In this document: positions 3,378 through 26,323 of the stretch, piece by piece | Layout of the letters: every line of letters starts with the position of its first letter | Position numbering within the stretch: the stretch's first letter is position 1 | Source: a virus | Virus genome (UHGV): UHGV-1544975 | Length of the DNA stretch: 31,654 bases | Direction: 5' to 3' (one strand) | Notes under the pieces: model-generated | The model's input: only the letters and a program-made list of their open reading frames with translations | The model's database searches: none | What the model was told of the DNA's origin: nothing | Program-made: the position numbers and the translations under genes

Positions 3378-5180
3378 TTAACCTCTCAAGAAACACGCCA
3401 CAGCGACATCAAACAGGCTGGAATCCTGTATTGCCTGCTCACTTTCCCTGTTCGCTTCATCCAGTACTTCACGCGCACTGCGCGATTGTGGATTACCATC
3501 ATCATCCAGCACGGTGATTATCATGTCCGGAGATTCAAGCAGCGAGTCTTCAGCTATACGCAGATCAATATCTCCTGCCGGATCTGCCATCATTTTTTGT
3601 TCTGTCTGTTGCAATATCTTACCGGGCTCAAAAGGAGCTACTTCGTCTGGCGTCCTGACCTCTGCTGTTTTATAGAATGAAACAGCCTGAGCATTAAGTT
3701 CACTTTCTGCCTGCTGTCGTCGTGCCAGTTCTGCTCGAGCTTCAAAAAACTGACCTCCAGGCTCGTGCGGCGCCAACGCGTTACGAGAAAATTCCAGGCG
3801 TTCTTGTGCCTGCCGGATTCGTTGGTCAATATCGCGAAGTCTGGCCTGTTTATCTGATCGAGCACGAGATAAAGCCTTACCGCTACCGGTTGGCTCTTCT
3901 GCAAGAATTTGTGCGCGCTGTTCAGTGAGATTTTCAATAATTCGTTGGCTATTAGCGATTTCAGACTGGTAAACCTGTCTATCGCCACGCGACAAAAGCT
4001 GCGCGGCCTGTTCTTCAAGCAACCGATTTTCTATAGCGCGCGCCGTTACTCCATCATCTACAGATGACAGAGCCTCATTAACTGCCTGAGACAGCAGACT
4101 CTTGCGCCCAGGAATTTCACTGAAAGATGCAGACTCAACAATGCTGGCAACGTCTACAGGTCTCCCCTGGCTAACATCAGACATGGCTTTTCGCAGAGCC
4201 TGAATGTGCGAATTACGCGAAAGCACGTTGATCGGAACGCCGGGAGCAATATCAATTTCAGCATGATGAGCGGCATTCGCCGCCAGTGCAGCATCAATAT
4301 CAACTGGTGAAAAATTTGGTGTGCTTGTAGACTCGCCGCGAGAGTTAATAAATCTGCCGACACCACCAAACGCCACCCCAAGAACAGCATCAATAGCAAT
4401 TGCCTGTCGATCCAACACATCATACTGGTTAGCCATTTCGCTATAGCCACCATCACGAAGCGTTTTTGCAGTAAGCCCACGCTGTGCCATACCGAACGCA
4501 ATATTTGTACCTGCGGCATAGGCAATATCTGGCGTTGCACGTACTGCTGTTGCTGCGGCGCGTCGCACTGAACTTTCACCCGTCCGCGCAAGCTGAGCCG
4601 CCACACCTTCCGCCAGCGCACCACCAGCACGTAACCCGAGGCTCATAGGGATCAGTGTTCCGGCACCAGCAGTAATACCCTGCACTAATCCCGCTTCCTG
4701 CGCCGTCCTGAAATCAACACCCTGTGCTGTCAACCGTTCAAACTCAGAAAAACCCTGTAGAGAAGTTACCGCCGCAGCACCTCCGACCGGACCACCGAGC
4801 GTTGTACCGACAACAGCCTGCCCGCCCATATCGAACAACCCATAAAGGACCTGCCCGGCGGTTCCGGTTGTCGCGGCATCAGGCGTCAGCCGCTTAACCT
4901 GCTGCTCTGCTAGTTTTCTCTGCTCAGCAATGTATGAAACTGAAGTGTCATTGAGCGAGGTGTTTTCGTTAACAAGCTGAGCAATCGGTGATACGATTTT
5001 ATCCATCCCTGCCCATAGCAACTGATCTGGCTTTGCCACCAGCCCGGAGTACAAACCAGACAATGCCGCTCCTACAGCATTGTCGAAAAAACCAACATCG
5101 CTGTTAAAGCCAACTGGATTTGATGCTGCTTCGTCAAGCTGCTGATTCTGGTTTACTGGATTAAGGCCAAAGTAACTCAT
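3378..5180 (-). CDS. Internal virion protein (600 aa), Ala/Gly-rich with a coiled-coil C-terminal part
   Basis: Position between two other large virion proteins; 4-nt overlap with the upstream gene. Confidence 0.45.
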   Translation of the reverse strand: MSYFGLNPVNQNQQLDEAASNPVGFNSDVGFFDNAVGAALSGLYSGLVAKPDQLLWAGMDKIVSPIAQLVNENTSLNDTSVSYIAEQRKLAEQQVKRLTPDAATTGTAGQVLYGLFDMGGQAVVGTTLGGPVGGAAAVTSLQGFSEFERLTAQGVDFRTAQEAGLVQGITAGAGTLIPMSLGLRAGGALAEGVAAQLARTGESSVRRAAATAVRATPDIAYAAGTNIAFGMAQRGLTAKTLRDGGYSEMANQYDVLDRQAIAIDAVLGVAFGGVGRFINSRGESTSTPNFSPVDIDAALAANAAHHAEIDIAPGVPINVLSRNSHIQALRKAMSDVSQGRPVDVASIVESASFSEIPGRKSLLSQAVNEALSSVDDGVTARAIENRLLEEQAAQLLSRGDRQVYQSEIANSQRIIENLTEQRAQILAEEPTGSGKALSRARSDKQARLRDIDQRIRQAQERLEFSRNALAPHEPGGQFFEARAELARRQQAESELNAQAVSFYKTAEVRTPDEVAPFEPGKILQQTEQKMMADPAGDIDLRIAEDSLLESPDMIITVLDDDGNPQSRSAREVLDEANRESEQAIQDSSLFDVAVACFLRG

Positions 5181-14686: not shown

Positions 14687-14979
14687 TCCTGTTCACTGGC
14701 CTCTTTGGCCATCTTCAAATACTGTTCAGGGCAATGCGCCATAACGCGCTGAAACAGTTCCAGCGCCAGATTGCGTTGCCCCTCATTAAATGCCATTGCC
14801 ATAGCGTCCATCGGTGAGATAGCGGAAAACACACGGCCTTTCTCCAGCACCGACCAGACAACGCGACGCCCCTGTTCACTGCTCATGACAAAGCGAATGT
14901 CATCAATTTCACGCTGCGCCATGTCACGTTGCTTACGGGCGTTTTCTTCTTTCAGTTGATCGTCTTCGTAATCTGTCAT
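14683..14979 (-). CDS. Hypothetical head-assembly-region protein (98 aa)
   Basis: 4-nt overlaps with both portal and scaffold genes. Confidence 0.45.
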   Translation of the reverse strand: MTDYEDDQLKEENARKQRDMAQREIDDIRFVMSSEQGRRVVWSVLEKGRVFSAISPMDAMAMAFNEGQRNLALELFQRVMAHCPEQYLKMAKEASEQE

Positions 14980-16655
14980 TGTGATTGCCCACCCTGACCA
15001 CTAACTGCATTCGCCATAGCTGACAAAACACTCGGATCCGAAGTTTTAGCTTCGCTTAGCGTCTTGGCCCCCTGTGCCGCCGCCATCCCCATCGCCATCA
15101 TTTGTTGCTGCTGTTGTTGCTGTGCCCGTTGCTGGCGAGCCTGCTCAACCTGTTCCTGCGGAACAATGACGGTTGGAGACACTCCGGACATATCAGCGAA
15201 TGCATCGATCGCCTGATCAACGTTGAGTTTGTCGAGAGCTTCTGGTTTCGCTTGCGCAAGTTGACCAATGAAGTTGACCGTAGACGCCAGACTGGACAGG
15301 CCGATAGACTTCTGCGCCTGAGCCATGACGGAAATGTATTCGACCTTCAGGGGCATACCTTCCATCGCGTCAGGCGGTGGCGGCAGCATGTTTTTACGCA
15401 CCATCATCGAGAAAGCGCGGTCAATGAGAGGATTAAGACATTCGTCGTTCAGACGCTCCAGAACCGGCCCCAACATCAGAAGTTTTTCTTCTTTCATTTC
15501 GATCACTGCTTCAACAGGCATCGAGCGGGTATTGATGTTCTGCAACATCATGAACAGATCGACAAAGTAGGCGCTGTTAATGATTTGACGAGTGTCCTGA
15601 ATGTCTGCTACCAGATCTGCTGTACTGGGGTTAACCAGATAAGCAGGCCTGAAGCCATCCTGACCAGTAATCTGATCGATATACGTGATGTCACCAGGAA
15701 GAAGGGAGGCGCGCTGATTCTTGAGGGAAGTCGGAGCAACCATCGGCGGATTGGTGGCTTTATCAATCAACTGCGACTTGCGCTCCTGGAGAAGTTGCAA
15801 TGCCTTAACAGGTCCAAGCGCCAGCATACCCGGGCATGATGATCCATAAACATCTTCGCCATTAACTTCCCAGCGCGGAGCCATAATTGGAAACTCATCA
15901 AATCCGGACTCACGCAACAACTTGTCGTTATCGCCACCAACCTCGTAATAAACCGATTTGAATGGCTTGTTCTTGCTATCCAGCTTCGATGTATCGCGGT
16001 CAATGTTCGGGTAAACCGAATGCATCACTTCAATCCACTTCTCGTAGGTGCCGCTTTCCCACATGCTTTTTACGGATTCGCTGACGTTATTTAGTCCGAA
16101 CTCCTGAACAAGCTGACGAACAGTCATAGAGAACTTGCGAAAACAGGTGTCCACACTGCCACGAGGTGAGTTAGCCAGGTAGTAACTTCCTATCGGGAAT
16201 GGCATTGTACGAATGATGTCCTCGTCATCCTCCAGCACCGCCATTGCGCCAGTGCTGTATGTGCCGAGGCTTCCGTATAACTGCGGCAGCGACTGATAGA
16301 GATTCGACTTATTGAACATATCGTTCATGCGGTTCTGCACCGCCTCAAGCCACAACTTAACAGGGCCATAATCCATCATTTCAGGATCTGGCGTAGCCAG
16401 GCGAAACCACGGACGCGCGGGGCTTGTGATGCATGACATCATGCCGCTGGCGAGAGTGCGCGCCGCCATAGTCCCGGTCGAATCAATAATGCGTGTATTG
16501 CGTCGATCGTTACGGTTGACCTCAGAAGTCAGAAAGCGGGAACCACGCGGGTTGATGTAATCACTCAACTCGCGCCAGTGCGGCTCGAACGACTGACGCT
16601 CGCTTTCAAGTTGTGCGAACTGTTTGTTCCATCGCTCTTTAGTTGTTTCCGCCAT
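14976..16655 (-). CDS. Portal protein (559 aa)
   Basis: Size, position after terminase and before scaffold, Gln/Ala-rich flexible C-terminus. Confidence 0.7.
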   Translation of the reverse strand: MAETTKERWNKQFAQLESERQSFEPHWRELSDYINPRGSRFLTSEVNRNDRRNTRIIDSTGTMAARTLASGMMSCITSPARPWFRLATPDPEMMDYGPVKLWLEAVQNRMNDMFNKSNLYQSLPQLYGSLGTYSTGAMAVLEDDEDIIRTMPFPIGSYYLANSPRGSVDTCFRKFSMTVRQLVQEFGLNNVSESVKSMWESGTYEKWIEVMHSVYPNIDRDTSKLDSKNKPFKSVYYEVGGDNDKLLRESGFDEFPIMAPRWEVNGEDVYGSSCPGMLALGPVKALQLLQERKSQLIDKATNPPMVAPTSLKNQRASLLPGDITYIDQITGQDGFRPAYLVNPSTADLVADIQDTRQIINSAYFVDLFMMLQNINTRSMPVEAVIEMKEEKLLMLGPVLERLNDECLNPLIDRAFSMMVRKNMLPPPPDAMEGMPLKVEYISVMAQAQKSIGLSSLASTVNFIGQLAQAKPEALDKLNVDQAIDAFADMSGVSPTVIVPQEQVEQARQQRAQQQQQQQMMAMGMAAAQGAKTLSEAKTSDPSVLSAMANAVSGQGGQSQ

Positions 16656-16669
16656 TTCAATGACTCCGG

Positions 16670-16876
16670 TTACTGACCAAGCAGCGTTTTACCGCTGGTA
16701 TTAGCGGTTGATGTGTCGCCCTGAGAACCGGTAAGCAGCGTAGAACTACGACCAGCAGCAGCGCGACGGCGACGAGTTTCTTCGTCGCGGGCATCAACAA
16801 CGGCGGCATCCTGCTCCTGTGGTGCTGCCTGAACTTCTGGTGTTGCAGGCACTGACGGTGAGCTACCCATGCACAT
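16670..16876 (-). CDS. Small Ala/Ser/Thr-rich protein (68 aa) preceding portal
   Basis: RBS context CGGAGTCATTGA before the ATG is repeated before the portal start; alternative frame 16657..16896 lacks this. Confidence 0.4.
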   Translation of the reverse strand: MCMGSSPSVPATPEVQAAPQEQDAAVVDARDEETRRRRAAAGRSSTLLTGSQGDTSTANTSGKTLLGQ

Positions 16877-16965
16877 ATCAATGACTCCGTACGCAATTAA
16901 ATTATTACCAATTTAACCACATATGATTTATTTATCGTAGACAGTTGACATTTAATGCACGAATT

Positions 16966-16982
16966 ATTACCTTTCAGGTAAG
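16966..16982. promoter_or_regulatory. Operator-like palindrome ATTACC-TTTCA-GGTAAG upstream of the portal operon
   Basis: One of about nine copies of the ATTACC-N5-GGTAA motif. Confidence 0.45.
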
Positions 16983-17303
16983 TAAATGGTTCATTCCGGT
17001 TATTAACCTGACTGGCTTGTCGTTAAATTGAACAGGTGGAGTGAGCTTTTATTTTGAGCAGTACGGCGTATGGCACATGCGCCGATAGCGGTCTGGATAC
17101 GTTTAAGGGGCACCCTCCCTTGCTCGGGCAAACGAACCAGGTAGCCGGAATGTGCAAGTCGAGCGGTTTTATTCCGCGCACGGGGATTCACCATCCCGGC
17201 GATTCGGTGTGACGCCTCGGAAGAGACGAGGGTACAACGATGAGAGCATTTATGGAGCCGCGACAAAGTGTGGCGCCTTAACAGGCTAAGTGCTCTCAGC
17301 GTT

Positions 17304-17380
17304 GTGGCATTAGCTCAGTTGGACAGAGCAACCGCCTTCTAAGCGGTTGGTCGCAGGTTCGAATCCTGCATGCCACGCCA
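17304..17380 (+). tRNA. tRNA-Arg (anticodon UCU), 77 nt including 3' CCA
   Basis: Folded by hand: perfect 7-bp acceptor stem GTGGCAT/ATGCCAC, D-stem GCTC/GAGC, anticodon stem ACCGC/GCGGT, loop CTTCTAA, T-arm GCAGG-TTCGAAT-CCTGC, discriminator G, CCA. Confidence 0.9.
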
Positions 17381-17423
17381 GAATCACGCCTAAGGACCGT
17401 GATGCCAGAAGTTCCAGGTGCTT

Positions 17424-17465
17424 GGCGGTGATGGTTTCCCTTGAAGGACTATCACCGCCCTTTTT
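17424..17465 (+). terminator. Rho-independent terminator after the tRNA (GGCGGTGAT...ATCACCGCC then CTTTTT)
   Basis: 9-bp stem plus T-run. Confidence 0.6.
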
Positions 17466-17543
17466 ACAGCAGGACGCCATTGCGATGACTTCATGCTGTA
17501 AACCAGTACAGCCACGGAAGGCATAACTCATTGCTTCCAGTTC

Positions 17544-17567
17544 GCCCGGTTCGCCGGGCATTTTTTT
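17544..17567 (+). terminator. Second terminator-like hairpin (GCCCGG-UUCG-CCGGGC then 7 T) directly upstream of the DUF2829-like gene RBS
   Basis: 6-bp GC stem, UUCG tetraloop, 7-T tract; RBS AAGGTGAG follows immediately. Confidence 0.6.
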
Positions 17568-17578
17568 AAGGTGAGATT

Positions 17579-17875
17579 ATGAGCGAAACATCAACAGTAT
17601 CTTTCTCCACTGCTTTGTCATCACTCAAAGATGGTAAGCGCATTGCACGTGCCGGATGGAATGGCAAAGGCATGTATCTGCAACTGGTTAAGCCACCGCA
17701 ATCGGCCACTCCGAACGAGTGGCGATTTGACGTTACATGCGGTGACGAGTATACATTTGTACCTGGCGTTAAACTTCTACCGTGGATTGGGATGAAAACT
17801 GCTGACGGTTGCTTTGTACCGTGGCTGGCATCTCAAACCGATCTGCTATCTGATGACTGGATTGTAATTCAATAA
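17579..17875 (+). CDS. DUF2829-like small protein (98 aa), candidate Tad2-like anti-Thoeris protein
   Basis: Strong RBS; motifs ARAGWNGKGMYL and PWLASQTDLLSDDW match my recollection of DUF2829; opposite strand to flanking late genes. Confidence 0.5.
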   Translation: MSETSTVSFSTALSSLKDGKRIARAGWNGKGMYLQLVKPPQSATPNEWRFDVTCGDEYTFVPGVKLLPWIGMKTADGCFVPWLASQTDLLSDDWIVIQ

Positions 17876-17965: not shown

Positions 17966-19441
17966 TTAAGCATAGGGATCGTAATCTGTAATGGCCTTGC
18001 CTTGCTGGTTCTGCTGACCTGGAATTCGCAGACGCTTCGACACAGGGAAAGCAAACGTCAGCAATAGCGCATCGCCTTTACCAGGAGAACGCCCAAGCCG
18101 CTCCTTGATATCTTCCTTCGGTTCGATAACGATTTTACCGTCCACTCGAACTTTGTACTCTGCCGCCGACAGGTCGTCCGCTGTTTCCTGGTCATCAAGC
18201 ATGCCGCCCAGCCTCAGCCATGTCTTGCATGAGTTGAACATCTCCCCGCGCTTATTGAGCATCTGCGGGTCAGTAGACGCGCCACCGAACGGAACAAGTT
18301 GCCATGTACGACCCCAGCCATCACCGATTGACTTCAGACCAGTTCCGTAACCGAAGTCGATGAACACTGCGTCAGCCTGGTACTGGTCTTCAAAGTCAGC
18401 GATACGCTTCGCCATAATCAGATCGTCAGTGGTCTTGTTGCCGGTCCACAGCACCTTACTGTGCAGCCCCTGCCGCAGATATATCACCGCGTCATCAACA
18501 CCGGAGTATGCCGGGTCAACGCCGATTATCACCGGAGCATGTGCAACCTGCGCAGCGGTGACCACCCGTTTCATTGCCTCGTCAGTAAGTCCGGTAGGGA
18601 TAAACTGCAATTCAGATGCATCCGGGAATATGCCGCGCACACGGATTTTAACGAAGTCGCTATCTTCCCCGTAGTCATCAACCCATTTCTGCAACTGCTG
18701 TTTGTTAGTGCCTTCCACCGTCCGGCTGTCAATCTGCGCAGTTTTCCAGCGGTGTTTGTATTTGCGGAAACATTCGCGAAAACGCCCGGTATTACGTGTA
18801 GGGTTTCCGAACGCCACCCAGATAATCTCAGTGTCTTCGTCCGTAAGCGCACCCTCAGCAACTTCCCACACCAGATCCGCAATGTTCGACGCTTCATCGA
18901 ATACCACGATGATGCGTTTGCGCTCGTTGTGTAGTCCGGCGAATGCCTCAGTGTTGTGCTCAGACCAGGGGATTGCGTCAGCTCGCCACCGCTTGTCGTG
19001 CCCAGGATCATTGCTGTACATCGCAGTAGCGGTACAGGTAAACCAGTCTTTCGTGATAGCAAGGTTCGACCACTTGATAATTTCCGGCCAGGTCTTCGTT
19101 CGTAGCTGGTTGTCGGTGTTGGCGGTCACCACGACCTTACAATCCTCGCAAGTGGACATGCCCCAGTTGATCAGCATTGAGATGAATGCGGATTTACCAA
19201 TACCGTGACCCGAAGCACGTGCCAGCATAAGCGGCTGATAGCGCGTCTCTGGATTCTGCAGGTGATCACGTATCTCTCGGAACGCATCAGCCTGCCACTG
19301 ACGTGGGCCGGTAGCATGTGCCAGTTCAGTCCCCTCTTCCCCCCACGGGAACGCATAGAGGGCATAGCCAAGCGGATCGTGAGTGAACCCTGCAATATCC
19401 TCGATCAACTGCTCTTCAGGAGATAACGCTGTATCTGTCAC
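17966..19441 (-). CDS. Terminase large subunit (491 aa)
   Basis: Walker A-like GHGIGKS, Walker B-like IIVVFDEAS, acidic C-terminal nuclease-like region; overlaps the small-subunit stop. Confidence 0.9.
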   Translation of the reverse strand: MTDTALSPEEQLIEDIAGFTHDPLGYALYAFPWGEEGTELAHATGPRQWQADAFREIRDHLQNPETRYQPLMLARASGHGIGKSAFISMLINWGMSTCEDCKVVVTANTDNQLRTKTWPEIIKWSNLAITKDWFTCTATAMYSNDPGHDKRWRADAIPWSEHNTEAFAGLHNERKRIIVVFDEASNIADLVWEVAEGALTDEDTEIIWVAFGNPTRNTGRFRECFRKYKHRWKTAQIDSRTVEGTNKQQLQKWVDDYGEDSDFVKIRVRGIFPDASELQFIPTGLTDEAMKRVVTAAQVAHAPVIIGVDPAYSGVDDAVIYLRQGLHSKVLWTGNKTTDDLIMAKRIADFEDQYQADAVFIDFGYGTGLKSIGDGWGRTWQLVPFGGASTDPQMLNKRGEMFNSCKTWLRLGGMLDDQETADDLSAAEYKVRVDGKIVIEPKEDIKERLGRSPGKGDALLLTFAFPVSKRLRIPGQQNQQGKAITDYDPYA

Positions 19442-20034
19442 TGATTACCATCCTGACGTTCTTTGAGTCGCTTCCTGGCTGCTGCTATGCGATCAGCAAT
19501 TGTCACATTCACATTAACATCCAGACGTTCTTTGAACGCGTTGACATCAACATGCTTACCAATCAGCTCAAGGTTCTTCACCTTGTCAGGCCATTTAATT
19601 TTTTTGAGGATTGTCTCTATCGAATCCTCGTTCATGTTCATGATGGTCGATGACAGATCAAAGCCACTAAGCGTAGTGCGCCAGATTTTCGGCCACTCAC
19701 GGATTGGTTTAAGGCTCCCATCGTCGTTGAGGATGTCGATCACGTCCATCTGGTCGATCTGCACCAGGCGCATGAGAACGTAATCAGCACTGACGCGCAT
19801 TCGTTTGTTGCGCTCCTCCATCAACTCGGCAATCCGTTTTTGAATGCGTTCATCGCGCATCATGACACTGGCTTTAACTGCCGCTGTATTTGGGGAGAAT
19901 CCTGCGTTAATCGCTGCCTGAGTCTGGTTTTCAGGCGTTTTGATGTATGACTGGCAATAAGCCTCCTGCATTGCTGTTAGTGGCTTAAATTGCGTTGATT
20001 TGCGTTTATAGGTTTTAGGTTCAGCAGGCATCAT
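19438..20034 (-). CDS. Terminase small subunit (about 198 aa)
   Basis: Small-terminase-like DNA-binding N-terminus (TAMQEAYCQSYIKTPENQTQAAINAGFS); track start 20112 is probably over-extended; tandem ATGs at 20034 and 20031 follow GGTGG. Confidence 0.65.
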   Translation of the reverse strand: MMPAEPKTYKRKSTQFKPLTAMQEAYCQSYIKTPENQTQAAINAGFSPNTAAVKASVMMRDERIQKRIAELMEERNKRMRVSADYVLMRLVQIDQMDVIDILNDDGSLKPIREWPKIWRTTLSGFDLSSTIMNMNEDSIETILKKIKWPDKVKNLELIGKHVDVNAFKERLDVNVNVTIADRIAAARKRLKERQDGNQ

Positions 20035-25584: not shown

Positions 25585-25738
25585 AGCTATTGCCTGATAT
25601 TTATTTCAGATAATAAATATTCACCCATAAGGTAACAAAAATCAAGGATAGTTACCTATGGGGTGCATTTACCTGTTGGGTAATATTGCTTTAAATTGAA
25701 TCATCTACTGATTCATATATGAGGCGATTTTCCAGAAA
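25585..25738. promoter_or_regulatory. Immunity switch intergenic region with divergent promoters and operators
   Basis: AT-rich inverted repeat ATATTTATT-N6-AATAAATAT (25597..25620); half-sites GGTAAC (25631..25636) and GTTACC (25651..25656); palindrome TTTACC-TGTTG-GGTAAT (25668..25684); possible minus-strand promoter TTGTTA-17-TATTAT. Confidence 0.55.
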
Positions 25739-26323
25739 ATGAAAAGTATCCAGGACGTCCGCAGGCAAAATCTCAACGACTTGATCGACCGTGAATTCAA
25801 TGGTGTTCAGACGCGGATGGCAGAAAAACTTGGAACTCAGGCAAATCTGGTAAACCGCTGGGCTCTTGGCAAGAAGGTTATCGGCGACCAGGTTGCACGA
25901 AAAATTGAAGCTGCCGCCAATAAACCCCGTAACTGGCTTGATATTGATCGTTCGCTTTCTCAGGAGGGTTTTCAGCCTGTCGGACCAAGCGACATTGGTC
26001 AACTGGCGGCTCACAACCTGGAACGCTGGATGAGCGAAAGCCGCGACCTTTCAACACAGGGAAAACTTCACCGCGCATCCGGCGTAGCCCAGGTGACAAT
26101 CAGCCGCCTGTTAAACAATGAGGTCAGCGTTTCCATTTCCACCCTGGAGAATGTTGCATCCGCATTCGGGCGTCATGGCTATGAATTACTGATTCACCCG
26201 CACGACCCTGCGACCATCAACTATGATCGCTCGCGCTACGCATTGTTACCCGAAACCGAGAAAGCAAAGATCGAAAGTTACATTGAATTTGTCATCAACC
26301 AGAACGAAAAAAGCAAACAATAA
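25739..26323 (+). CDS. Repressor-like protein with two HTH domains (194 aa), no S24 peptidase domain
   Basis: N-terminal and central segments both look HTH-like; divergent from the Cro-like gene; followed by a terminator. Confidence 0.5.
   Translation: MKSIQDVRRQNLNDLIDREFNGVQTRMAEKLGTQANLVNRWALGKKVIGDQVARKIEAAANKPRNWLDIDRSLSQEGFQPVGPSDIGQLAAHNLERWMSESRDLSTQGKLHRASGVAQVTISRLLNNEVSVSISTLENVASAFGRHGYELLIHPHDPATINYDRSRYALLPETEKAKIESYIEFVINQNEKSKQ

Follow-up and report, generated by a model that had tools for sequence, protein, structure and literature searches.

The window analysed here is the whole 31,654-nucleotide (nt) stretch of the virus genome UHGV-1544975, an epsilon15-like prophage (Uetakevirus; phiV10/TL-2011b type) of Escherichia coli, and the subject of this study is a structured non-coding RNA element at positions 16877-17303 and its continuation downstream. 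The region is bounded by a 68-amino-acid (aa) open reading frame (ORF) on the minus strand (16876..16670), beyond which lies the portal gene (16655..14976, minus strand), and by a tRNA-Arg(TCT) gene on the plus strand (17304-17380); the terminase genes (19441..17966) are again on the minus strand. BLAST searches showed the region to be 98-100% identical to phages of the phiV10/TL-2011b type and to many E. coli chromosomes. A first-pass annotation, made from the sequence alone, had described it as an unusually long, GC-rich and non-coding interval with many short inverted repeats, which might hold a late promoter, a promoter for the tRNA, or a structured RNA. The length is indeed exceptional, the late-gene neighbours lying no more than about 50 nt apart, and the full non-coding stretch was found to cover 16877-17578 (about 700 nt), with the tRNA as its sole interruption. 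The GC content was mildly overstated, since 17041-17303 has 55.9% GC against 49.9% for the window.

The non-coding assignment was borne out. RefSeq carries no annotation in 16877-17303 in the E. coli chromosome of 100% identity. The ORFs inside the region (52 and 45 aa on the plus strand, and 87 aa on the minus strand at 17266..17003) have no conserved counterpart, as the open frames of the relatives were distributed over five different frames relative to a fixed anchor. In addition, only 73 of the 240 runs of insertions or deletions among the aligned relatives were divisible by three, and the variable columns were spread over the codon positions without periodicity (36/43/39), showing no third-position excess. 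A protein-coding gene in this region was thus rejected.

To the contrary, alignment of 40 diverged copies (alignment A3) demonstrated that 17063..17232 constitutes a conserved core RNA domain of about 170 nt on the plus strand. Its helices are P1 (17064-70/17078-84), P2 (17093-96/17137-40), which has a variable apical hairpin carrying a YCCUU motif, the variable hairpin P3 (17163-77), P4 (17183-86/17194-97; loop UCACCA), and P5 (17215-19/17227-31; loop GAAGAGA). A near-invariant 19-mer, GGUAGCCGGAAUGUGCAAG, occupies 17140-58. Two long-range pairings were added to these helices, namely, the possible pseudoknot PK1 (17073-77/17151-55, GCACA with UGUGC) and the pseudoknot PK2 (17189-92/17206-09, CACC with GGUG). 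Every listed pair was confirmed to be present in the window sequence.

A pair-count model comprising P1, P2, P4, P5, and the two pseudoknots was tested on A3. Pairing was retained in 97.2% of the cells as compared with 89.3% in shuffled alignments, none of the 500 shuffles being as good, and it fell to 24-44% when the partners were slid by one to three columns. Double, compensatory changes, for which the first-pass annotation had proposed to look, were found at 11 pairs. G-U pairs were common and A-C pairs were rare, and therefore the fold belongs to the RNA of the plus strand. PK2 contains one covarying pair (CG 36 and AU 4 in A3, 79 and 31 in the full set), while the PK1 pairs are invariant in the alignment and hence yield no covariation signal; the core is thus predicted to carry one or two pseudoknots. 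The inverted repeats noted initially proved to be far above chance and to correspond to helices that covary, and a single-sequence fold of the element gave z = -2.95. Conservation spans 17063-17307 and then stops abruptly, as judged from 111 distinct versions in the IMG/VR database, and within the core about 60 near-invariant unpaired nucleotides are conserved together with the pseudoknots over three phage groups.

No known family accounted for this fold. In a scan with Rfam 15 (4227 models), the tRNA was the only match at threshold in the window, and nothing was matched in 16877-17303 even at E values up to 10; the core was likewise unmatched in nine related loci. The lack of an Rfam hit, which the first-pass annotation had named as grounds for discarding a structured RNA, would wrongly dismiss the element, because the comparative evidence establishes a conserved fold. 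The core was neither annotated in the GenBank and RefSeq records nor described in the searchable literature, and the paper on Uetakevirus ZX5 makes no mention of this RNA. The Pas small RNAs (sRNAs) were considered and set aside as a different, late-region family.

BLAST further delimited 17063-17307 as a separable module. In lambdoid phages (cdtI, mEp460, Stx2c- and Stx2a-converting phages, and others), the module shows about 80% identity and has no tRNA after it, and its first approximately 165 nt also occur in P1, P7, D6, SJ46, and RCS47, within the ban operon and 14 nt after tRNA-Ile. An exact-word scan of IMG/VR retrieved at least 120 loci comprising the 111 distinct versions. A single core was present per locus in 130 of 131 loci, as in the window, and no second diverged copy (an analogue of the putR site discussed below) was detected in the window or the other loci except for a tandem pair in one lambdoid IMG/VR contig (L027; 3986-4155 and 4787-4960, minus strand), where the two cores lie about 800 nt apart behind one PL-like promoter. 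The core was found in 1077 of 5426 complete E. coli genomes, about one in five, and also in prophages of Salmonella, Klebsiella, Enterobacter, Citrobacter, Kosakonia, and other Enterobacteriaceae. A contig scan of species-representative genomes with a 15-mer that was a poor choice gave 8 true members among the 120 loci listed, from 7 genomes, all Enterobacteriaceae. The carriers thus fall into three otherwise unrelated groups of temperate phages, namely, lambdoids without an N gene (including Stx2 phages), Uetakeviruses, and P1-like phages.

The position of the core in these groups was consistently that of an early leader. In the lambdoids, a CI-like repressor gene (encoding helix-turn-helix (HTH) and S24 peptidase domains, or a short HTH protein) lies upstream on the same strand, followed by its terminator and a strong promoter flanked by operator-like palindromes; the promoter of cdtI, TTGACA-16-CATAAT, matches the consensus at 11 of 12 positions. 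The core starts 30-110 nt after the promoter in at least 10 different promoter/immunity types, which is the position of the PL leader. No N-like gene was found after the lambdoid core, the first ORFs lying 300-1100 nt downstream and belonging not to antiterminators but to families of unknown function, and in one lambdoid type the leader and its terminator are followed directly by xis-int. In the Uetakeviruses, the core occupies the locus described here, and in P1 it resides in the C1-controlled ban operon. Control by an operator, C1, or a CI-like repressor is common to all three settings, and the RNA should therefore be made only upon loss of the repressor.

In the window, a sigma-70-like early promoter was located at 16938..16973 on the plus strand, to be read either as TAGACA (16938-43) with AATTAT (16962-67) or as TTGACA (16945-50) with TACCTT (16968-73) at a spacing of 17 nt. 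The promoter scanner returned one match, TAGACA-18-AATTAT at 16938-16967, which by itself did not exceed the chance count for the scanned region; the call was supported by the near-identity of the first approximately 105 nt of the region in all Uetakevirus relatives, from Escherichia, Enterobacter, Klebsiella, and Salmonella (Tyrion, Klebsiella, PAT1, SPN1S). The part that the initial reading had called AT-rich and promoter-like has 33.5% GC over 16877-17040. The operator copy reported there was likewise verified as the exact palindrome TTACCTTTCAGGTAA (TTACC-N5-GGTAA) at 16967..16981, overlapping the -10 region. The same site in the curated GenBank record of epsilon15 is labeled as a repressor binding site. 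We infer that transcription starts near the promoter-like site. The arrangement at this locus is a promoter overlapped by the operator of the prophage itself and followed by a conserved plus-strand RNA. Of the promoter functions envisaged earlier, a late promoter was not sustained, because the single promoter-like site is under repressor control and is directed away from the portal gene; a tRNA promoter is the function to be expected of the same site, which has the orientation of the tRNA and is the only promoter-like site before it.

Seven exact copies of the operator were found in the window (16967, 20052, 23276, 23338, 25669, 26381, and 26443), and 27 sites with up to two mismatches were counted against 8.2 expected, a number reached in none of 100 shuffles. 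The other copies cluster near the immunity region, by an HTH repressor-like ORF (25739-26323). Further operator-like sites stand at 20034 beside 20052, and at 25621 and 25284 beside 25669, so that the motif marks at least five separate control regions, one of them (about 20040) between the small terminase gene and the genes upstream. This distribution suggests that several repressor-controlled early promoters may be scattered over the prophage genome.

The structured plus-strand RNA is predicted to extend on both sides of the core, from about 16980 to 17306, by means of two hairpins. On the 3' side, the 19-bp helix P6 (17233..17306) consists of 7 bp (17233-39/17300-06), an A·G mismatch, and 12 bp (17241-52/17287-98), and closes a hypervariable apical insert (17253-17286 here; 7-168 nt among the versions). 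P6 was kept in 31 distinct strand pairs, with a mean duplex energy of -26.1 kcal/mol versus -9.7 kcal/mol for shuffled strands, and was also detected as an internal inverted repeat of the window. The helix shares its final 3 nt with the 5' end of the tRNA. On the 5' side, hairpin P0 (16980..17054, plus strand) was proposed from a minimum free energy (MFE) fold with z = -1.8, its support being weaker than that of P1-P6. P0 resembles P6, having GGAGUGAGCUUUU on its 3' strand and GUCGUUAAAU inside, and it also resembles the hairpin upstream of dicF in the Qin prophage of E. coli K-12 (L254, approximately 3681-3757); the P0 motif recurs in Klebsiella and Salmonella Uetakeviruses. A boxA/nut interpretation of UGCUCU(U/C) was ruled out, as this strand is paired and covarying. 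A search of the window for antisense targets of the P6 insert and the rest of the element returned chance matches of 9-11 nt, the one real match being the P6 inverted repeat itself.

The likeness to the Qin hairpin bears on how the RNA might be processed. DicF is released from the dicBp transcript by RNase III, which forms the 5' end of a 190-nt species, and by RNase E, which forms that of a 53-nt species (Balasubramanian 2016, PMC5069750; bioRxiv 10.1101/2023.04.14.536235). Counting 190 nt back from the 3' end of DicF leads into the 3' strand of the Qin hairpin that aligns with P6, and P6 and its solitary copy P0 are therefore regarded as homologues of a proven RNase III site. By this analogy, P6 would be cleaved by RNase III in the present phage as well, and the curators of epsilon15 predicted an RNase III processing site in the equivalent intergenic region. 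Since P6 runs 3 nt into the acceptor stem, the cuts by RNase III and RNase P would fall only a few nucleotides apart. The junction sequence GUUGUGG has two mutually exclusive conserved partners, namely, the base of P6 (upstream ACAAC) or the helix closing the downstream cargo (CCACAAC) or the tRNA acceptor stem; in the window it lies at 17300-17306 and pairs with 17233-17239 or within the acceptor stem.

Beyond what had been noticed at first, the element reaches past the tRNA to approximately 17567. The tRNA-Arg (anticodon UCU; 17304..17380, plus strand) has an encoded CCA end and was recognized by ARAGORN and by the Rfam tRNA model (73.3 bits). Elsewhere, the same slot, between ...CGUU|GUGG and CAAAUCACG..., is filled by cloverleaf-like structures closed by GUUGUGGUG/CACCACAAC, in which the first arm is the hairpin GCGCA-GGCUGA-UGCGC and the last arm abuts the 3' strand. 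These were considered as overlooked real tRNAs and rejected, given that ARAGORN found none at a lowered threshold and the folds are cloverleaf-like only. Downstream classes share one order, i.e., the CGUU|GUGG junction, the cargo, hairpin H8, the terminator-like T1, and often a second terminator, T2. H8 (17383..17403, plus strand; AUCACG, loop CCUAAGGAC, CGUGAU) is conserved after the cargo slot in both Uetakevirus and lambdoid contexts, and its pairs were confirmed in the window. In the shared layout, T1 is a long hairpin, UUGGCGGU...ACCGCC, followed by CUUUUUACA.

In the window, T1 forms the end of a DicF-like sRNA module (17410..17465, plus strand) with the stem 17424-34/17449-59 and a subsequent CUUUUU, as found by a terminator scan. 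The module aligned with K-12 dicF and its cdtI equivalent, convincingly so for the terminator half, and the T1 stem covaries. The Rfam DicF model gave no match in the window itself at E values up to 10, the module being too diverged, and the homologous T1 hairpins of two Klebsiella-type loci (L059 and L100) scored 27 and 23 bits, below the gathering score of 48. The loop of the module, UUUCCCUUGAAGG, differs from that of K-12 DicF, and its targets may differ accordingly from those of K-12 DicF. Duplex energies of the DicF-like module and of the core loops against the ftsZ leader were uninformative with this crude method, in which K-12 DicF, the positive control, was not significant either.

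The 3' domain that follows (17463..17538) was aligned across 39 representatives and contains P9 (17463-71/17494-502), which overlaps the U-tract of T1, and P10 (17516-20/17534-38), both on the plus strand and with their pairs confirmed in the window; the MFE of 17381-17578 gave z = -4.2. The intrinsic-terminator-like T2 (17544..17567, plus strand; GCCCGG-UUCG-CCGGGC and AUUUUUUU) stops 3 nt short of the ribosome-binding site that serves the following gene, with no promoter-like site between them. Over 91 distinct downstream contexts, terminator-like hairpins were present on the sense strand in 63 and on the antisense strand in 8. The first protein gene (17579..17875, plus strand) encodes a 98-aa Tad2-like protein (Pfam PF11195, E = 3.1e-24; a DUF2829 protein in RefSeq). 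Tad2-like DUF2829 proteins are a family of anti-Thoeris sponges. T2 is conserved before different first genes in the Uetakevirus relatives, and the gene behind the same leader and T2 varies among them (DUF551 and others), so that the slot behind T2 looks like a hot spot of exchangeable early cargo.

Taken as a whole, the layout was in good agreement with that of the dicBF leader of Qin (Faubladier 1990; Balasubramanian 2016, PMC5069750; Ragunathan 2023, bioRxiv 10.1101/2023.04.14.536235). Both have a repressor-controlled, PL-equivalent early promoter followed by a long untranslated stretch; both contain the RNase III-type hairpin, which ends with ...GUGCGCUUCC-GGUUGUGG in Qin and is cut there; both possess a slot for structured cargo and a DicF-type sRNA with an UUGGCGGU...ACCGCC-CUUUUU terminator; and in both, small genes downstream need read-through. 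In Qin, the order upstream of dicF is the hairpin GAAAGCGCA...GUGCGCUUCC-GGUUGUGG, a cdtI-type cloverleaf, and DicF. Qin differs in lacking the P1-P5 core, having the ydfABC ORFs upstream instead, whereas in the window the slot holds a real tRNA-Arg, the DicF-like module is too diverged for the Rfam model, and a second terminator and the Tad2-like gene follow rather than dicB. The repressor-controlled promoter and the homologous hairpin thus identify the element as the 5' module of a non-coding leader of about 600 nt with the architecture of Qin dicBF, within which the core is a separate module absent from Qin, and the sequence comparisons demonstrate both points. Promoter and operator, tRNA, RNase III-type hairpin, and DicF-like module are accordingly of known kinds; what is new is the P1-P5 core, which the dicBF-type leader carries as its 5' RNA module and which is shared with lambdoid and P1-like phages. 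Neither the dicBF-type early-operon leader nor this sharing had been foreseen in the first-pass annotation.

The closest functional precedent is the put RNA of phage HK022, which confers processive antitermination by RNA alone (PMC9378689). As with putL and putR, the core is a structured RNA just downstream of an early promoter in lambdoid phages without an N protein, with terminators further along, and its action would need host RNA polymerase only. In size and shape the two are unlike, put being about 70 nt with two stem-loops, while the core, of about 170 nt, has five helices along with pseudoknots and is joined by P6. Comparison with the PL and PR leaders of HK022 revealed no similarity of sequence or structure, and an nhmmer profile of the core found nothing in the HK022 locus (L010). 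HK022 has one put site per early operon, while the core occurs once per phage; moreover, put is known to act in cis via the zinc-binding domain of the RNA polymerase beta' subunit, whereas the evidence here is positional.

A second parallel is the EAR (eps-associated RNA) of Bacillus, which Irnov and Winkler are said to have described in 2010 as a pseudoknotted processive antiterminator. Like the core, it is conserved and pseudoknotted and lies within an operon, where it is proposed to render the polymerase terminator-resistant; it differs in phylum, size, and sequence, no Rfam EAR match having been obtained in the window and nine loci. GOLLD and ROOL are large ornate RNAs of phages and prophages, of unknown function, which typically lie beside tRNA genes and are expressed in the lytic phase; the core differs from them in having no Rfam match, in being smaller, in its Enterobacteriaceae hosts, and in lying clearly within an mRNA leader. 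The lambda N leader, like the present one, lies between PL and the first gene and has a long RNase III-type helix, but here neither an N gene nor boxA/boxB is present. An antisense RNA of the C4 or CI type was not indicated, in that no Rfam C4 match was obtained on the element and no internal target boxes were found.

We tentatively favor the view that the core acts as a cis antiterminator in the manner of put or EAR, while holding it to fall somewhat short of probable. Upon loss of the repressor, by induction or infection, host RNA polymerase would transcribe the unit. RNase III would cut P6, as it does the homologous Qin hairpin, and RNase P would cut the 5' end of the tRNA 4-5 nt beyond, splitting the precursor into the 5' core RNA, tRNA-Arg, and the DicF-like sRNA. 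The nascent core would meanwhile fold and act on the polymerase transcribing it, which could then pass T1 and T2 into the cargo, namely, the Tad2-like gene here and the whole PL operon in lambdoids, including xis-int in one type. In lambdoids without an N gene, the core would stand in for N/nutL.

This antitermination reading is favored because the core is promoter-proximal across many immunity types, because N is absent, and because terminators separate the core from every first gene, as in the window, where T2 directly precedes the Tad2-like gene without an intervening promoter. Since the three phage groups otherwise share little beyond the host polymerase, the core presumably requires only factors of the host. 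That it stands for a new class of antiterminator RNA is a real possibility. The broader proposal, that the core is an RNA-only processive antiterminator with a new fold (or some other RNA that modifies the polymerase) and replaces N/nut in many N-less temperate phages of Enterobacteriaceae (Stx2a- and Stx2c-converting phages, P1-like phage-plasmids, and epsilon15-like podoviruses) and gates early cargo such as xis-int and counter-defence genes, is somewhat more doubtful.

Several observations weigh against antitermination by the core. Besides bearing no similarity to putL/putR, the core is two to three times larger, and it is present as a single copy, as opposed to a put site in each early operon of HK022. 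In P1, it lies about 2.3 kb from Pban and directly after tRNA-Ile. Because the short unit of the window converges on the terminase gene, a fully terminator-resistant polymerase would make antisense RNA into the late genes. Finally, epsilon15 has lost the core by deletion, with T2 and the downstream gene retained, and is viable, so that the core is dispensable for growth. Both the strict juxtaposition of the core with a tRNA or cloverleaf and the presence of the RNase III-type hairpin would be explained no less well by a processed free RNA.

Such a free RNA is the main competitor, a possibility to be taken seriously although we consider it somewhat less likely than antitermination. The core would be liberated by RNase III at P6 and by the tRNA-processing enzymes as a stable trans-acting RNA, serving as a decoy or sponge of a host or defence component or pairing with mRNA through the YCCUU-bearing P2 loop, and would belong with the tRNA and the DicF-like sRNA to an early array of RNAs for counter-defence or takeover. 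In accordance with this, the 3' boundary ...CGUU|GUGG coincides exactly with the 5' end of the tRNA or the closing helix of the cloverleaf, the P1 core begins 14 nt after a tRNA, and the terminal 19-bp hairpin P6 would shield a free 3' end. GOLLD and ROOL lie beside tRNAs, and RNase P releases the c4 RNA of P1 and the CI RNA of P4. The neighbors are of counter-defence type (the Tad2-like gene, tRNA-Arg, and the DicF-like sRNA), and one cargo type holds a fragment of a 16S rRNA helix. Furthermore, within one phage the YCCUU motif is common to the apical loop of P2 and the loop of T1, with up to 13 identical nt in Salmonella phages, but this motif is short, the longest common substring averaging 6.0 against 4.5 in shuffled loops. 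In addition, the complementarity search in the window gave chance-level matches, with no partner or target found, and a free RNA would need neither promoter-proximal placement nor terminators before the first gene.

It is improbable that the core is only a scaffold for processing and stability, i.e., a folded, cap-like 5' structure with an RNase III entry site that guards against 5'-end-dependent decay and determines where the tRNA and the DicF-like sRNA begin. RNase III sites in T7 early RNA and in the lambda N leader offer parallels. The core does stand at the very 5' end of PL transcripts. The homologue of P6 in Qin is a proven RNase III site, and loss of RNase III there destabilises the upstream transcript (PMC5069750); the epsilon15 curators, for their part, predicted an RNase III processing site in this intergenic region. 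A stabiliser or cleavage site, however, would not require about 60 near-invariant unpaired nucleotides and pseudoknots across three phage groups, and Qin and P0 show that the RNase III-type hairpin can exist without the core.

Still less probable is a sensor resembling a riboswitch or T-box attenuator, in which the core would bind a metabolite, tRNA, or protein and toggle GUUGUGG between ACAAC in P6 and CCACAAC or the acceptor strand, thereby controlling processing or termination. The two mutually exclusive partners of GUUGUGG, the 3-nt overlap of P6 with the acceptor stem, and the complex, aptamer-like conserved fold are what such a device would display. Unlike in known expression platforms, however, T1 and T2 are separated from the core by 120-260 nt that include a variable cargo, the downstream genes are mutually unrelated, and no similarity to Rfam riboswitches or T-boxes was found. 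That no RNA element exists here at all, the region being a small protein gene (such as the 87-aa ORF, a hypothetical protein in mEp460 and Tyrion) or a DNA site (origin, pac, or att), is scarcely credible in spite of the hypothetical coding sequences (CDSs) laid over it in some GenBank records and a certain depletion of stop codons (1.35 open frames per sequence versus 0.84 in shuffled ones), given the shifting frames, the indels and codon positions described above, and the compensatory changes, accompanied by many G-U but few A-C pairs, which point to a plus-strand RNA.

The core is therefore of interest as an RNA present in about a fifth of complete E. coli genomes yet unannotated and outside Rfam. 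It stands where the early lytic programme opens in phages of medical relevance, among them Stx2-converting phages and P1-like phage-plasmids. Should it control read-through, the core would provide a handle on prophage induction, excision, and the expression of early counter-defence in N-less phages, and, as an antiterminator, it would form only the second phage family of the RNA-only kind. If it is a free RNA, it would be the third product of an array with the tRNA and the DicF-like RNA made at the onset of infection. Either way, the well-studied dicBF locus is extended, and testable predictions follow as to how RNase III and RNase P process a tRNA that lies within an sRNA precursor.

Some individual loci deserve mention. 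In epsilon15 (L131, 1500-1570), a shared UUCCCUUGAUGCU joins P1 and the 5' strand of P2 to the loop of T1, the core, tRNA-Arg, and H8 being lost. This phage is a deletion derivative, in which recombination between near-identical copies of UUCCCUUGAUGCU, one in the P2 loop and one in the T1 loop, took out the core and the tRNA together with half of T1. One cargo type of Klebsiella-type Uetakeviruses includes a copy of 16S rRNA helix 11 of about 45 nt (positions about 240-285; L073 4600-4646 and L100 1953-1999), recognized by the Rfam SSU model (E = 1e-5 to 6e-7) and by a 40-nt blastn match to rrsH with 85% identity. A general idea of rRNA mimicry was rejected, as this single cargo type is the one that matches 16S rRNA. 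The long P6 insert of a Uetakevirus-type contig (L062, 384-430, plus strand) gave a sub-threshold match to the type I hammerhead (28.7 bits against a gathering score of 34; E = 0.004).

The P1 ban operon has an annotated "dicF-like region" upstream of its tRNAs (L004, 769-870), and in Tyrion an above-threshold int-alpA RNA match lies downstream in the same accessory region (L006, 2903-2967); non-coding RNAs seem to accumulate in such early units. Matches above threshold to C4 antisense RNA and isrK in mEp460 and cdtI (L002, 206-394, and L005, 277-465; minus strand) belong to the antirepressor region across the immunity genes and are unrelated to the element. In the phiV10 record NC_007804 (L001, 2934-3185), the tRNA-Arg is unannotated, and a hypothetical CDS on the opposite strand, PhiV10p04, spans the tRNA and the DicF-like module and is probably a mis-annotation.

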